A stretch of DNA of 63,447 bases, filler included. It is 9 parts of 9 records of this genome, joined end to end, with 100 filler letters (N's around TTAATTAATTAA, not from the genome) between each part and the next. Parts side by side here need not be neighbours in the genome. Positions count along the whole stretch, not along the records: positions 7,256 to 12,332 come from SRR31147125_69350; 8 more parts are not named here. One strand, written 5' to 3'. Below, piece after piece: positions 7,156-56,861 of the stretch. A program made the position numbers and the translations under genes. The notes beneath the pieces are model-generated. The model made no database searches, was not told the DNA's origin, and worked only from the letters and a program-made list of their open reading frames with translations. The stretch's first letter is position 1. The number at the start of each line of letters is the position of its first letter.

Positions 7156-7255
7156 NNNNNNNNNNNNNNNNNNNNNNNNNNNNNNNNNNNNNNNNNNNNT
7201 TAATTAATTAANNNNNNNNNNNNNNNNNNNNNNNNNNNNNNNNNNNNNNNNNNNN
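7156..7255. other. Artificial contig linker
   Basis: N44-TTAATTAATTAA-N44, giving stops in all six frames. Confidence 0.99.
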
Positions 7256-7270
7256 ATTCCTCACTATTCC

Positions 7271-10200
7271 TCACTCCTCACGGAACTTGTTGAACTTGAA
7301 GTCTGTTCCGAAGATGTCGTCACTTCCCAGTGCATAGTCGTGGAAGGTTCCCTCAATGACACCCTCTCCTTGATGGCCCAGCGGCTTGGCGCGGACCGGA
7401 CGACGGGCTGTCACACCGAGCAGTCCATGGACGTTCACATTCATTGGTGTTTGCCCTGTCTTGGAATTCAGCGCAACATCCAAATGCCTAAAAGGAGAGA
7501 ATCCAACGTAAGAAGAACAAGGAATGGATGACAAAGAAGACGGGGAACGCACAGGTTCTCTGTGTCAAGAACCATCATACGAGAGACAATGAAGATCCAC
7601 TCGCCCACATGAGCCTCAAGCCTTTGACTGGTGAAGAATACGGTTGCTGGGGAGGATCGACACTTCAGTACGAATCCAAACCATCCTCTCCTCTCCCACC
7701 TTCATTCTGAAGATGGAAGACACCGCGGCCATCTGGTTCAACCCATGGATCGAACACAGCCTGGCCGGATGTGTCCAAGTACACCTTGTGTTTGCCGATG
7801 CGCATGCCCACCTGCATATACGCGTTATGATTCACAAAGCAGCGTGTGTAGATAGGTGGGAACACACCTCGCCAATGTATGTTGCTTCGGGATCTTCGGG
7901 AAACTGTACAAATCGTGCATTCACCTGCATGTCCGCAGCACTGAAAATATTAAACACCTGCATCCAGTATACGGGATGAGACGAGAAAGGAACGAGGGCG
8001 GTCCTGCTCCTTGCCGTACCCTTCCGGGTTCTCCCATGACATCGTATTCACCACCATAGAACGCCTTGAAGTGGGGATCTCCCTCAACACTACCGGGATC
8101 GGGATCAATCGTACAATCATTCTTACAACCGTCTGGTGATGGGGAGTCAGCAGGAATCGAATGAAGGGCAAACCGTGCCAAGACAAACCGAAATCATTGT
8201 CATTTCCATCATCACAATCTGAAGAGTGTGTCATTAACGTCTGATACAGTGAATGGTTCCGTGTCCACACGTACCCTCGCCGATCTGAGGCTCGAGAACA
8301 CCGTTTCCACAGACAGGTCGTGTGCAAGGAGGGCCACACGTGAGAGGTGGAGGACGTGTGCAAATCGTTCCGTAGCACTGTAGTGTTGGTGTGTGAGTGT
8401 GCGTGTGAGTGAGAACAGGGAGTCACGCACCATGGTGCTTCCTGTTTCCCCGTCATCGCATTCCTCTCCATCTTCCTTAACCCCATTTCCGCATACAGGA
8501 TCGTTTGGATCCGGGGGCAGTTGGCATGTGTCCGAGCATCCCACTTCCCCTCCTTGACTCTCCGGCGGGTCACATTCTTCGTTAACATCAATATATCCAT
8601 CTCCACAAACCCCAAGCAGACATGTAACATCATTACACTAGTGCACGAATTAGACATGAAAAACGAAAACAATCAGGCCTCGTACCAAGACATTCACAGG
8701 GGGTGCCAGAGGATCACATTCTTCGCCACAGCCAGTAGAGATAATACCATCGCCACAGATAGGCACGGTACACATACTGGTACACTACACACCAGATGAG
8801 AAGATGAAGAAAGGATGAAGAAAGACAAAAGAAAGACATACGGTGCAGTCATTGTCGTCGTCAAGATTTCCATCATCACACTCTGTATCTCTCACGTCAC
8901 CAAAGGAAACAAAAGAAACAAAAGAAACAAAGGAAAAACAACCGTACCCTCTGGTGGTTCCACAATTCCATTTCCACACACGGGCGGACTTGGGACCGTA
9001 GAGGGCGATGGTTCGGGTCCGTCACAACAGTACGTTCCCCAGTGGATGCATCCTACATCCGTGTTACAAAATCGAACACAACCAACAAACTCTGCTACGC
9101 ACCTCCCTTGGAGCGACCGCGAGGGGTAATGCACCTCTTCGAACTGCCCGAACCACCACACCAGCACTTCTCTCCTTTCTCGTGAACCCACGCCGTCTCG
9201 TGAGAGATACACGTTCCTCCGTGACTTCCTCCACAGCGTTCCGAAATACGCGAGCCATAGCCACCACAACCACACGGTTGCTCGATGATGAGATCCAGGT
9301 GAATGTAGATCCAGATGCAATGCTGAACACATCGTTAGATCTCATTTCAAGTAGTTCAAACGAAGACACGCACATCACAGAAGGAAGGTGGAATTTCAAT
9401 GGTAAATTCGTGATCAGGACCCGAGGGAGCGCCTCCACTGCATCCACCCTTGCGCTGGTGTCCACGGCATTTTGCAATGGAAAAGGAGGAAACGGTAGGT
9501 TCACCCGACCTCGGACTTCCGTTCTCCCCCAGACCAAAGTATGGGCTGGTAGGATCCAGATCCAGATGGTAGTTGTCGCTGCAGGATACATGGAAGGGAT
9601 CGGTGAACCCAGGGAGGGCGCCTTGATTCGTTCCGGGATTGCCATTGTAGACACCATCCGATCCAGCTGCATTGTTCCCGGTGATGATGGTCCCGTCACT
9701 GAAGGTGAAGACCCACGACTTGTAACGACCAGAGGAAACGGGGCATCCCGCCGCCATGGTGCTGTCCTCACCATCGGATGCTTCTGGGGGACACGAACCA
9801 CACGACCCACGACGACGACCATCCGAGCATTTCTGGATGGCAAAGGCCACGATGGGTTCATCCACTGCTTGGTCGCATGACGGAGGGTTGGGACAGTTAG
9901 GGGCACCCGAACTTTTCTCACTAAATCCAAAGCGGGGGCTGCTTGACTGGTGATCCATGTTGAAATCATCACTACACGACACGTGTGTAGTCAATCCGCT
10001 GTTGGAAGGGATGTTGGCCTCATTCGACTGTCCCGTGTAATAGGGACTGGACGGATCGATATTGTTGCCCATGACCTCGGTGCCGTCGGCATATTTGAAG
10101 TAGAAGAACGATCCGGACCCCTCGGGTGGGCACGGGCCCAGAAGTTGTGCCGTGACACAACCAAATCGGCCAGGTGGGGGAGCTCGGTTGGGACAGTGCT

Positions 10201-10712
10201 TGTAGGGGCTATCCCAGCTTGTATCGCAACGGCCCGTAGGATCGCAATCGGGACACTCGGAACCACCGCCTTCCACAATACGAACATCGGTCTTCACAGC
10301 TTCCGATCCACGAAGAGAGACTCCGGGATTAAGGTCGAGTGTCACACGAACGGGTGCTCCGGGACCCTCTTGGGTCAGGTGGGCAGCACCCGCAACCTTC
10401 TCCTCAGCACCATAACGAATGGTCTTCCAAGTTTCAATCGGATAGATTTGCTCGTAGTCATCGCAGGAATCTGAGTGGGAATTCTTGTAAGGACGTTGAA
10501 ACGGACGGTCACGGAAACAACGTACATGGCGACGGTGGAGAAATATCATCCGGTGCCGTTGGGGGATCATACGTACGTGGGGCCTGGCTCCATACCATAA
10601 CCAGCCCCGCCAAGAGAATACAGGCGGCAATCTGGGGATGACAGAACAAACGAACGAATGAGCACATGACGAGAAGGAGCAAAGTCAAAAGATCACACAC
10701 CCGAAGGTCCAT
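7271..10712 (-). CDS. Eukaryotic 15-exon gene (gene A): secreted Cys-rich multidomain protein of 881 aa with signal peptide, two HVSCSD repeats, five CGNG/CGDG..ECD repeats and a C-terminal GDPH/VWD-like domain
   Basis: Hand-spliced exons (minus strand): 10712-10701, 10631-10526, 10470-9374, 9322-9103, 9052-8948, 8882-8842, 8784-8686, 8637-8431, 8377-8275, 8218-8189, 8132-8020, 7957-7868, 7811-7700, 7646-7553, 7487-7271. Total 2646 nt in one open frame; all 14 introns are GT..AG, 48-69 nt. The first intron is in-frame and stop-free, so the extreme N-terminus is less certain. Confidence 0.85.
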
Positions 10713-10957
10713 GCGCAATGATGTGAAATGTGGAAGAACAACTAAGGGGGAAGAAGAGGGGGAGGAGTCCAAGTCAGGGTCACGGCGTTCTGTACGAAGC
10801 AGCAAGTGCAGTGATTACGCAGTGGGTGTAGTGTGTGCACGAGAAGCGTGTCCTCCTCCTCCCCCCATCCATTCCATCAACCACCCAACGTACCGGAAGA
10901 AGGAGAGAGGAAAGTGGATCTACCAGAAGACAAACCGAACATAGTACATTTTAGTTT

Positions 10958-11119
10958 CCAAAAAAGGGTCCTCCATGTCCTGATATGGGAACCGTTCATG
11001 TCTTCCACCACGCCATGCCTCACGCGCACAATGATGGAGAGAGTGAAGCGCAATGCGTAGGAAGCACACGGAGAAATATGGAAGATTTCCTCTTATGGGC
11101 AGGCTCCTTCCATATATGG
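10958..11119. promoter_or_regulatory. Four CArG-type boxes in a bidirectional promoter
   Basis: CCAAAAAAGG 10958-10967, CCTGATATGG 10979-10988, CCTCTTATGG 11089-11098, CCATATATGG 11110-11119; each pair is spaced 21 bp start-to-start. Confidence 0.6.
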
Positions 11120-11336
11120 AAGACTTGTGTTGGACTCGGTCCTCGGGTTCTACGATGTGTCTATGGAAGGAAGGGATGATGTGAATCCATGCAAATGAAG
11201 GAGGGAGGAGTGTTCGAGAGTCATCTTGTGTGTTGAAGAATGCTCCAAGACCTAAACTCCGATCGTTGGGTCTCAGTTCCATCCCCTCTTCCTCTCCTCC
11301 CGTCTTCTTCCCTTTCCTGCCACACCGCACCACACC

Positions 11337-12332
11337 ATGCCACTGAATTGGGTATGTGGGATGTTTGTGTGCACACTGCTCCCCGGGGTTCACGTGTTTC
11401 ACGCTTCAACACGGCTTGGGGTTCACACCTTCTCACACACCTTCTACAACTGCATGCAGGCCGTCTGTGCCGTACTTCTTCTTGCACCTGTCACCCTCGC
11501 ACTTAGCGTTAAGGAGGGTACGTGGAATATTCGAAGGGTTGTGGCATGTAGGTCCTCACACCTCCCCATCTCCTTTCCCCCTGTCTACGTCTGGTCTCTT
11601 AGATGTCTGCGCCTCATTCCCTGCCGAGGGGATGTCCATGACGCGTTCCATCTACTACGGAGACTACCAACCTGCCGGGAGCGTTACACTCACGCAAGAG
11701 GCTCCTGGTGTCCCAATCCGTGTATCCTGGGCCCTCAACGCCAATGTTCGTCTATCACGAGACCGCGTTTATTATCTGGGAGTGCACAAGGGCGACCCGG
11801 CAATTCACGCAGAAGCCATGGTCATGTCGGATTTGGCGGGCGGCGAGTGTCCCCAATGCAGCCCCGATGGATATTGTGGAGGATACAGCAGTTGCCCTGT
11901 TGAGCAGGCAGGATATCCCAACGTGGAACACTTTGACTTCAGCTGGCCCCAGTTCCCGTCTTGCCCATCGTCCGGACGAGGATCCTACTACAGCATCTCC
12001 TTTGGTTCCGCAGGAGTTGTAGAAGGATCAAACTTCCCAGGTGGCTCAGGATACACGGGGGAGTCGGATGAGGTGTGTACGGATGGATGGGTGTAGCACG
12101 GGAATATGTAACACAAGTGCTTCAGGCCGCAATGCCCGAGGATGAAGCACTCAGCGACAATGTCGTTGTGGATTGTTCCGACAAATTCCATCTTAACGAA
12201 CTACCCGACCACATAGATTACGGGTGGGGAGAGAAAAAGGCTCCCACTAGGTCTGTGGATATGTTTCCAATCGATGCCTACTCCATGACGCGGTGCAAGT
12301 ATGGAAATATCCGCAGCGTATGTGACTCCCCC
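11337..12332 (+). CDS. Eukaryotic intron-containing secreted protein (gene B), paralogue of gene A, 3'-truncated
   Basis: Exons 11337-11351, 11460-11517, 11603-12072 and 12126 to the contig end (GT..AG introns of 108, 85 and 53 nt; alternative start at ATG 11454). Signal peptide AVCAVLLLAPVTLA; AGSVTLTQEAPGVPIRV aligns with AGAAHLTQEGPGAPVRV of gene A. Confidence 0.8.
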
Positions 12333-12432
12333 NNNNNNNNNNNNNNNNNNNNNNNNNNNNNNNNNNNNNNNNNNNNTTAATTAATTAANNNNNNNNNNNN
12401 NNNNNNNNNNNNNNNNNNNNNNNNNNNNNNNN
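12333..12432. other. Artificial contig linker
   Basis: N44-TTAATTAATTAA-N44. Confidence 0.99.
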
Positions 12433-18211: not shown

Positions 18212-18311
18212 NNNNNNNNNNNNNNNNNNNNNNNNNNNNNNNNNNNNNNNNNNNNTTAATTAATTAANNNNNNNNNNNNNNNNNNNNNNNNNNNNNNNNN
18301 NNNNNNNNNNN
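18212..18311. other. Artificial contig linker
   Basis: N44-TTAATTAATTAA-N44. Confidence 0.99.
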
Positions 18312-26707: not shown

Positions 26708-26807
26708 NNNNNNNNNNNNNNNNNNNNNNNNNNNNNNNNNNNNNNNNNNNNTTAATTAATTAANNNNNNNNNNNNNNNNNNNNNNNNNNNNNNNNNNNNN
26801 NNNNNNN
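26708..26807. other. Artificial contig linker
   Basis: N44-TTAATTAATTAA-N44. Confidence 0.99.
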
Positions 26808-32192: not shown

Positions 32193-32292
32193 NNNNNNNN
32201 NNNNNNNNNNNNNNNNNNNNNNNNNNNNNNNNNNNNTTAATTAATTAANNNNNNNNNNNNNNNNNNNNNNNNNNNNNNNNNNNNNNNNNNNN
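32193..32292. other. Artificial contig linker
   Basis: N44-TTAATTAATTAA-N44. Confidence 0.99.
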
Positions 32293-37640: not shown

Positions 37641-37740
37641 NNNNNNNNNNNNNNNNNNNNNNNNNNNNNNNNNNNNNNNNNNNNTTAATTAATTAANNNN
37701 NNNNNNNNNNNNNNNNNNNNNNNNNNNNNNNNNNNNNNNN
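37641..37740. other. Artificial contig linker
   Basis: N44-TTAATTAATTAA-N44. Confidence 0.99.
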
Positions 37741-43992: not shown

Positions 43993-44092
43993 NNNNNNNN
44001 NNNNNNNNNNNNNNNNNNNNNNNNNNNNNNNNNNNNTTAATTAATTAANNNNNNNNNNNNNNNNNNNNNNNNNNNNNNNNNNNNNNNNNNNN
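43993..44092. other. Artificial contig linker
   Basis: N44-TTAATTAATTAA-N44. Confidence 0.99.
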
Positions 44093-56761: not shown

Positions 56762-56861
56762 NNNNNNNNNNNNNNNNNNNNNNNNNNNNNNNNNNNNNNN
56801 NNNNNTTAATTAATTAANNNNNNNNNNNNNNNNNNNNNNNNNNNNNNNNNNNNNNNNNNNN
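56762..56861. other. Artificial contig linker
   Basis: N44-TTAATTAATTAA-N44. Confidence 0.99.

Follow-up and report, generated by a model that had tools for sequence, protein, structure and literature searches.

The adhesive-trail proteins of diatoms appear, by analogy, to be the closest functional counterparts of the gene described here, which has 15 exons on the minus strand (positions 7271 to 10712) of a 63,447-base stretch of DNA. This whole stretch is called the window below. Ca5255 of Craspedostauros australis, from diatom adhesive-trail material, has 12 DUF4215 repeats according to the available excerpt of its description (bioRxiv 10.1101/2023.03.06.531300). Proteins with a 'diatom-specific GDPH-domain', such as Ac629 of Amphora coffeaeformis, are also described from adhesive trails, and horizontal transfer was proposed for the bacterial-type domains of diatom adhesives in the excerpts of three sources (bioRxiv 10.1101/2023.03.06.531300; PMC8027222; PMC7335047). 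The 881-residue protein encoded in the window resembles the trail proteins, as these excerpts present them, in being secreted with a signal peptide, anchorless and modular, with DUF4215 and/or a domain named after GDPH. The diatom proteins differ in their PTS-rich or CAA domains, which the 881-residue protein lacks, and the excerpts describe neither a combination of DUF4215 with GDPH nor the module that we call H-x-SCSD. The diatom GDPH domain was reportedly defined by Lachnit in 2019, and its homology to the C-terminal domain of the 881-residue protein is putative.

VWD domains, as in FCGBP, MUC2 and VWF, have conserved cysteines and usually C8 or TIL neighbours. The excerpts of the relevant reports state that spontaneous Asp-Pro cleavage of VWD domains requires both Asp and His of GDPH, that the motif sits between the first two VWD strands (PMC10880436), and that the fragments of FCGBP stay joined by disulfides (PMC8267560). 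The protein of the window shares with this family the G-D-P-H motif, the aromatic and Gly positions after it, and an extracellular multidomain setting. It differs in having no Cys in 191 residues, in lacking C8 or TIL, and in the dissimilarity of its exons 12-15. Bacterial Myxococcus cysteine-rich repeat or DUF4215 proteins (e.g., P0005) have the same DUF4215 repeat and differing N- and C-terminal domains. Surface proteins of Acidimicrobiia (L004; P0002-P0004, P0019 and P0020) share the H-x-SCSD module, usually in two copies. They differ in being bacterial and intronless, in alternating the module with DUF7507 followed by SdrD_B or DUF7467, and in having no DUF4215 and no GDPH domain.

On balance, we favour the interpretation that the locus is a genuine nuclear gene with 14 short introns that encodes a secreted extracellular adhesive or matrix protein. 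The gene lies entirely on the minus strand of contig 2 (7256-12332, 5,077 nucleotides (nt), guanine-cytosine (GC) content 0.526). Once 14 GT..AG introns are removed, the frame from the ATG at 10712-10710 to the TGA at 7273-7271 is open over 881 codons plus the stop (882). The exons and introns of the revised model are as follows:

10701..10712, minus strand: exon 1, residues 1-4; then intron 1 (10700-10632, 69 nt, GTGTGT..CAG, phase 0)
10526..10631, minus strand: exon 2, residues 5-39, hydrophobic core of the signal and Pro-rich linker; then intron 2 (10525-10471, 55 nt, GTACGT..CAG)
9374..10470, minus strand: exon 3, residues 40-405, 1097 nt, N-domain and both H-x-SCSD modules; a long open exon with homologs
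9373-9323, minus strand: intron 3, 51 nt, GTGCGT..CTAAC..CAG, with an in-frame TGA
9103..9322, minus strand: exon 4 (revised by splice score), residues 406-478, Cys/Gly-rich spacer with two C-x-C-G-G-x-G-S..C units and ETAW
9102-9053, minus strand: intron 4, 50 nt, GTGCGT..TGTAAC..TAG
8948..9052, minus strand: exon 5, residues 479-513, last part of the spacer, Pro-rich link and first part of DUF4215 repeat 1; then intron 5 (8947-8883, 65 nt, obligatory)
8842..8882, minus strand: exon 6, residues 514-527, ECDDGN part of repeat 1; then intron 6 (8841-8785, 57 nt, GTATGT..TAG)
8686..8784, minus strand: exon 7, residues 528-560, last part of repeat 1, then repeat 2; then intron 7 (8685-8638, 48 nt, obligatory)
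8431..8637, minus strand: exon 8, residues 561-629, repeat 3 and start of repeat 4; then intron 8 (8430-8378, 53 nt, GTGCGT..CAG)
8275..8377, minus strand: exon 9, residues 630-663, last part of repeat 4 and first part of repeat 5; then intron 9 (8274-8219, 56 nt, GTACGT..CAG)
8189..8218, minus strand: exon 10, residues 664-673, 30 nt, CDDGN part of repeat 5; then intron 10 (8188-8133, 56 nt, obligatory)
8020..8132, minus strand: exon 11, residues 674-711, end of repeat 5, GDPH and first strands of the C-terminal domain; then intron 11 (8019-7958, 62 nt, obligatory)
7868..7957, minus strand: exon 12, residues 712-741, C-terminal domain; then intron 12 (7867-7812, 56 nt, obligatory)
7700..7811, minus strand: exon 13, residues 742-778, C-terminal domain; then intron 13 (7699-7647, 53 nt, GTGGGA..CCCCAG)
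7553..7646, minus strand: exon 14, residues 779-809, C-terminal domain; then intron 14 (7552-7488, 65 nt, GTGCGT..TTTTAG)
7271..7487, minus strand: exon 15, residues 810-881 and TGA (7273-7271), last part of the cysteine-free C-terminal domain

The preliminary description of this stretch proposed introns of 69, 55, 51, 50, 65, 57, 48, 53, 56, 56, 62, 56, 53 and 65 nt and a single 881-codon frame. We searched all GT..AG pairs of these sizes in the given order. The frame was reproduced, and 18 placements of the 14 sizes preserved it. The remark that the track of open reading frames (ORFs) shows only fragments agreed with the structure found, since a gene rich in spliceosomal introns is invisible to prokaryote-style ORF calling. 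Intron 4 had two 50-nt placements, 9156-9107 (GTGGTT..AAG) and 9102-9053 (GTGCGT..TGTAAC..TAG), which scored -16.7 and +9.3, respectively, in a splice-site model trained on uncontested introns only. Intron 4 was set to 9102-9053 because of this score and its fit to the consensus of the other introns. This choice yields the second C-x-C-G-G-x-G-S...C unit and leaves the protein length unchanged.

All 14 introns of the revised model start with GT, have G at +5 and end in YAG, and ten have T at +6. The T content was 36% in introns vs 23.5% in exons, and the intron lengths were 48-69 nt. Most introns have a YTRAY-like element close to the 3' end. The GT..AG ends, conserved donor, narrow length class and restored frame are those of U2-type spliceosomal introns. 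Intron 14 scored +13.4.

The ATG of exon 1 is the first ATG following an in-frame stop. The length of intron 1 (10632-10700) is divisible by three and its reading frame is free of stops, and the frame of the gene stays open without its removal. It is backed by the splice consensus and by the phase-0 intron that a neighbouring paralog has after codon 5. Retention of intron 1 may nevertheless occur; if retained, it adds 23 residues, including a second hydrophobic stretch, to the N-terminus.

The frame was compared with 200 first-order Markov sequences of the region. When any GT..AG intron of 45-75 nt was allowed, 98 of the 200 simulations were threadable, with a median of 19 introns and never fewer than 14. 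Because this many simulations were threadable, an open frame obtained by GT..AG removal is weak evidence alone. When GTNNG..YAG was required, an open path existed on the real strand and in 0 of the 200 simulations, and neither opposite-strand test gave one. The codon log-likelihood, for which exon 3 and the paralog served as the training set, was best in the model frame among the three frames in all of exons 4-15 (12/12); exon 2 was tied and exon 1 was too short. GTRYGT hexamers numbered 29 on contig 2 vs 0-13 on each of the other 8 contigs of the window. With 8 uncontested introns as training data, a small Viterbi gene model recovered 12 of the 14 introns. Two introns of the Viterbi model were rejected: its 117-nt intron 1 removes the hydrophobic signal core that the paralog retains, and its 122-nt intron 13 leaves a 7-nt exon. 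The number of open paths under the loose consensus is still 211,680, with five obligatory introns only (introns 5, 7, 10, 11 and 12). That the gene is real and spliced is well supported by the consensus path, the codon bias, the colinear paralog and the external homologs of several exons.

The paralog is divergently oriented on the same contig and was detected by tblastn (E 2e-12). It and the region between the two genes lie as follows:

11337..12332, plus strand: paralog, truncated at the contig end, with exons 11337-11351, 11460-11517, 11603-12072 and 12126-12332
10713..11336, no strand: intergenic region of 624 nt between the two divergently oriented start codons

The introns of the paralog are 108, 85 and 53 nt long with the donors GTATGT, GTACGT and GTGTGT. 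Its spliced product of 250 residues has a signal peptide followed by the N-domain and a single H-x-SCSD module, and aligns colinearly with residues 55-265 of the 881-residue protein (E 3e-22, 31% identity). The alignment is gapless across the 53-nt phase-0 intron of the paralog (12073-12125), which lies inside the module where exon 3 of the larger gene is uninterrupted. The unbroken alignment across the paralog's own 53-nt intron directly indicates that segments of this kind are removed by splicing in the source organism. This intron is present in the module of the paralog and absent at the same place in exon 3 (9374-10470). In both genes the first exon is very short (4 and 5 codons), and a phase-0 intron then interrupts the signal peptide. 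From the gene orientation alone, the region 10713-11336 is presumed to hold a shared promoter and the 5' untranslated regions.

All the segments listed in the preliminary description were found in the protein: the hydrophobic N-terminus, the Pro-rich linker, two repeats of ~100 residues, ETAW, five CG[ND]G repeats, GDPH and a hydrophilic C-terminus. Residues 1-21 are the sole hydrophobic stretch, with a Kyte-Doolittle 19-residue maximum of 1.8 (residues 1-19) and a next best value of 1.39. Hydropathy thus agreed with the claimed signal peptide, to the extent of a signal-peptide-like N-terminus, and with the claimed lack of a transmembrane segment or a glycosylphosphatidylinositol-type tail, as no C-terminal hydrophobic tail was seen. 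Residues 22-39 are Pro-rich (7 Pro in 18 residues), residues 40-157 form an N-domain with 7 Cys, and residues 406-494 form the Cys/Gly-rich spacer. The whole product has 54 Cys.

The database searches used single exons as queries. Pfam reported only sub-threshold DUF4215 among 11 exon pieces, and nothing for revised exons 4 and 5 or for the paralog exon. The only match of the N-domain (40-157) was the paralog, and ESM Atlas gave no usable match for exon 3. The protein combines an unnamed N-domain, two H-x-SCSD modules, five DUF4215 repeats and a Cys-free GDPH domain in an arrangement seen in no result of these single-exon searches, which took in neither eukaryotic transcriptomes nor metagenome and viral contigs. 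No full-length homolog or protein of the same architecture was present in these results, in line with the earlier statement that the domain combination was not recognised. An AlphaFold2 (AF2) model of the whole of exon 3 from 6 sequences had a mean predicted local distance difference test (pLDDT) value of 49.1 and was set aside as unusable.

Module 1 (residues ~158-265) and module 2 (residues ~285-384) of the H-x-SCSD type are ~100 residues long each. Their features are an F-x-F-x-DGT strand, H-x-S-C-S-D, [WF]G[ED]K..P and, towards the C-terminal end, a Cys. When exon 3 was compared by phmmer with 1.84 billion representative proteins, only four matches were obtained, three of which share the module. 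These three (P0002-P0004) had E-values of 9.1e-10 to 2.8e-7 and two module copies each. Four loci (L001-L004) emerged from a profile scan in which each prokaryotic species was represented by one genome; all lie in metagenome-assembled genomes of Acidimicrobiia (tblastn E 2e-16 to 1e-6). Only two further proteins (P0019 and P0020), which are named in NCBI as hypothetical Acidimicrobiia proteins, came from a profile search of 5.8 billion clusters. The fourth phmmer match, P0001 (3365 residues, He_PIG repeats, E 6.7e-26), was rejected as a relative: its 22-25% match recurs across near-identical repeats and leaves the invariant module residues unaligned. Its E-value is an example of a score inflated by multiple repeats.

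Eleven module copies were aligned, including both copies of the 881-residue protein, that of the paralog and 8 bacterial copies. The C-S-D, a G, a P and the C-terminal Cys are invariant, and the His is near-invariant. The bacterial copies are 26-35% identical to module 2. Pfam and NCBIfam gave no meaningful family for the 11 copies. A relation of the module to DUF7467, which was considered after a similar short motif was seen in P0004, was unsupported. The AF2 model of module 2 with the 11-row alignment had a pLDDT of 78.3 and a predicted template modelling (TM) score of 0.71, and consists of two long beta-hairpins and long ordered loops. Foldseek searches with this model gave no match at E <= 0.001, either against PDB (best E 0.12, TM 0.24) or against BFVD (best E 0.096). 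If the gene model holds, the module would be a new extracellular domain family of ~100 residues with a very restricted distribution, in a few Acidimicrobiia and this eukaryote.

One of the four loci, L004 (5779-10803, plus strand, Acidimicrobiaceae), encodes the only complete bacterial protein of the set, with 1,674 residues. Two modules alternate with DUF7507 x2 in this protein, N-terminal to SdrD_B x10, and none of the Pfam or NCBIfam models covers the two module copies. We read this layout as that of a stalked surface adhesin of the Gram-positive type, in which the module would occupy the head. In an unrooted tree with long branches, the three eukaryotic copies grouped together (support 84/88). 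The eukaryotic copies and two bacterial copies lie on one side of a split (97/96), and the six other bacterial copies lie apart. The tree fits one acquisition, by transfer in either direction, followed by duplication.

Residues ~504-690 contain five tandem cysteine-rich units of the form CG[ND]G...E-x-CD. The Pfam model DUF4215 (PF13948) matched exon 8 with 25.8 bits (E 1.3e-5) and exon 7 with 20.1 bits (E 7.7e-4); its gathering score is 27 bits, and these scores are for single exons of a gene whose introns cut every repeat. Exon 8 has 14 homologs; PF13948 is annotated on 12 of them, and a VWD family on none. The best exon 8 homolog, P0005 (717 residues), is 56% identical and shares the ECDPP-x-S-x-GG variant of repeat 3. 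Intron 6 in repeat 1 and intron 9 in repeat 5 have an identical repeat position and phase. This matching split of repeats 1 and 5 suggests exon duplication. The short exons 8842-8882 (41 nt) and 8189-8218 (30 nt) are each the CDDGN core of one DUF4215 repeat.

The last domain of the protein (residues 691-881, 191 residues) opens with GDPH and contains 0 Cys. A phmmer search of exon 11 against PDB matched the starts of FCGBP VWD domains (8rde_A, E 1e-8; 8r0t_A, E 5.9e-7); these are whole-sequence scores that sum over the repeats of FCGBP, and each single stretch is weak. The domain had been described as VWD-like. The FCGBP match bears this out for ~19 residues around GDPH, and the rest of the domain is unmatched and cysteine-free. 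None of exons 12-15 matched a VWD domain in PDB. Across exons 12-14, PDB gave either no match, as for exon 12, or chance-level matches to glucose oxidase (E 0.29 or worse). For exon 15, 0 homologs were found among 26 candidates, ESM Atlas gave none usable, and PDB gave one chance-level match only (E 0.64). A presumed likeness of the C-terminal domain to plant Root_cap (PF06830), which Pfam did not report, is treated as a lead only.

The following mechanism would agree with the favoured reading of a secreted adhesive or matrix protein. The signal peptide would direct the 881-residue product, which has no membrane anchor, into the secretory pathway. The beta-rich N-domain and the two H-x-SCSD modules may form a head that binds a ligand or surface. 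The Cys/Gly-rich spacer would follow the head, and the five DUF4215 repeats could serve as a rigid disulfide-bonded stalk. By analogy with VWD domains, the 191-residue cysteine-free beta domain could self-cleave at Asp-Pro and may mediate self-association. If such cleavage occurs, the C-terminal domain would be attached only non-covalently, because it has no cysteine.

Several points weigh against this reading. The gene is predicted from sequence, and the adhesive role is proposed by analogy. The fold predicted for the module has no structural neighbour in PDB or BFVD. The single-exon scores for DUF4215 are below the Pfam cutoff. GDPH is a mere four residues, so that self-cleavage of this protein is a prediction; Pfam VWD (PF00094) matches no exon, at the lower sensitivity of single-exon queries; and the C-terminal domain has none of the cysteines typical of VWD. 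Exons 12-15 are unmatched in Pfam and PDB, and the junctions downstream of exon 11 have no confirmation by homology, since no full-length homolog was found. Exons 13-14 carry nearly no codon signal, with log-likelihood ratios of +1.0 for exon 13 and -0.5 for exon 14 (exon 14 is still best of three frames). The donor of intron 13 is poor (GTGGGA, score -10.9), which makes this the least certain junction.

The weakness of exons 13-14 and of the intron 13 donor, the many alternative paths under the loose consensus and a stop codon 15 nt from the contig end would be expected of a non-functional or mis-modelled locus, such as a pseudogene, an assembly chimera or a gene with a wrong 3' third (exons 12-15). 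We consider this improbable, as a complete 881-codon consensus frame never arose in the simulations, the paralog is conserved, and the model frame outscored the other two in all test exons. Frameshifts or sequencing errors in a bacterial gene might be suspected instead of a eukaryotic gene, from the bacterial character of the other contigs and from the mainly bacterial occurrence of the module and DUF4215. This explanation is effectively refuted. The 14 T-rich interruptions of 48-69 nt each have the form GTNNG..YAG, most with a YTRAY-like element, and their removal restores the repeats exactly; the paralog shows the identical pattern, and the contigs are not physically linked.

The other alternatives accept the gene and differ on its role. 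The preliminary description had proposed a structural protein of a cyst wall, coat or scale, whereas the parts that could be matched (Acidimicrobiia module, DUF4215 and GDPH) rather favour an adhesive or matrix role. That the protein is a cross-linked building block without adhesive role, laid down in a cyst wall, scale, lorica or coat, seems unlikely to us. Such a structural role would account for a secreted, anchorless protein with 54 Cys in repeated disulfide-rich units and for a lineage-restricted architecture with no full-length homolog found. However, no exon matches a known wall, scale or cyst-wall Pfam family, and the matchable parts are typical of adhesins and of mucus or adhesive proteins, as the excerpt of one report presents them (bioRxiv 10.1101/2023.03.06.531300). 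The evidence fails to separate such a wall or coat component from an adhesive or matrix protein. The source eukaryote might instead be predatory, parasitic or symbiotic and secrete the protein for recognition or attack, be it to bind prey or a host, in lectin-like recognition or in defence, with bacterial-type modules acquired for binding bacterial or host surfaces. A module otherwise found only in bacteria, the clustering of the eukaryotic copies (84/88) and their 97/96 split with two bacterial copies would suit this idea, as would a tandem divergent paralog pair, which is common in fast-evolving secreted families. We regard it as quite unlikely, since Pfam and NCBIfam detected no enzymatic, pore-forming or known lectin domain and the tree is unrooted with long branches.

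Within the favoured reading of an adhesive or matrix protein, we tentatively speculate on a wider origin. The H-x-SCSD module may be an undescribed adhesin-head fold that was exchanged between Acidimicrobiia and an uncultured eukaryote, in which it was later duplicated. Together with the DUF4215 stalk and a self-cleaving Cys-free GDPH domain, it might represent a new class of eukaryotic extracellular adhesives made from bacterial parts, parallel to the trail adhesives of diatoms. The most novel element is the module, which is common only to this eukaryote and Acidimicrobiia. If the reading is true, the module is a candidate for the transfer of adhesin modules between domains of life. The occurrence of DUF4215 with a GDPH-type domain outside diatoms would bear on how the adhesives and matrices of microbial eukaryotes are built from shuffled, partly bacterial modules. 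Eukaryotic contigs in prokaryotic bins would also hold complete genes that are shredded by prokaryotic callers, with the fragments mistaken for small bacterial ORFs. The gene opens no long-standing question, and its function is predicted from sequence and analogy.

The window is composed of nine separate contigs with N44-TTAATTAATTAA-N44 spacers between them at the following positions:

7156-7255: spacer
12333-12432: spacer
18212-18311: spacer
26708-26807: spacer
32193-32292: spacer
37641-37740: spacer
43993-44092: spacer
56762-56861: spacer

The contigs were joined artificially and are not physically linked, so the neighbours in the window say nothing about the genomic context of the gene. 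All 13 of the large ORFs tested from the other eight contigs had bacterial-type family matches. The families on these contigs include ABC and TRAP transporters, DnaG, MutS2/Smr, histidine kinases, ribosomal protein S1 and AccA. Contig 2 is the lone eukaryotic-looking contig, binned or concatenated with bacterial contigs. A scan with exon 3 of the species-representative prokaryote genomes gave 62 pattern matches, none a relative, so contig 2 is missing from that collection. The 14 introns of 48-69 nt, the GTRYGT donors and a GC content of ~52% fit several intron-rich microbial eukaryotes. The preliminary description suggested a little-studied protist, and the source may also be a fungus or an alga. 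The literature yielded no usable taxonomic clue from the donor hexamer. A density of fourteen short introns per gene is atypical of diatoms. The contig set of the window probably derives from more than one organism. The GC content of the other eight contigs ranged from 0.385 to 0.563; the contig at 32293-37640 has the value of 0.385, vs 0.44-0.56 for the remaining bacterial contigs.

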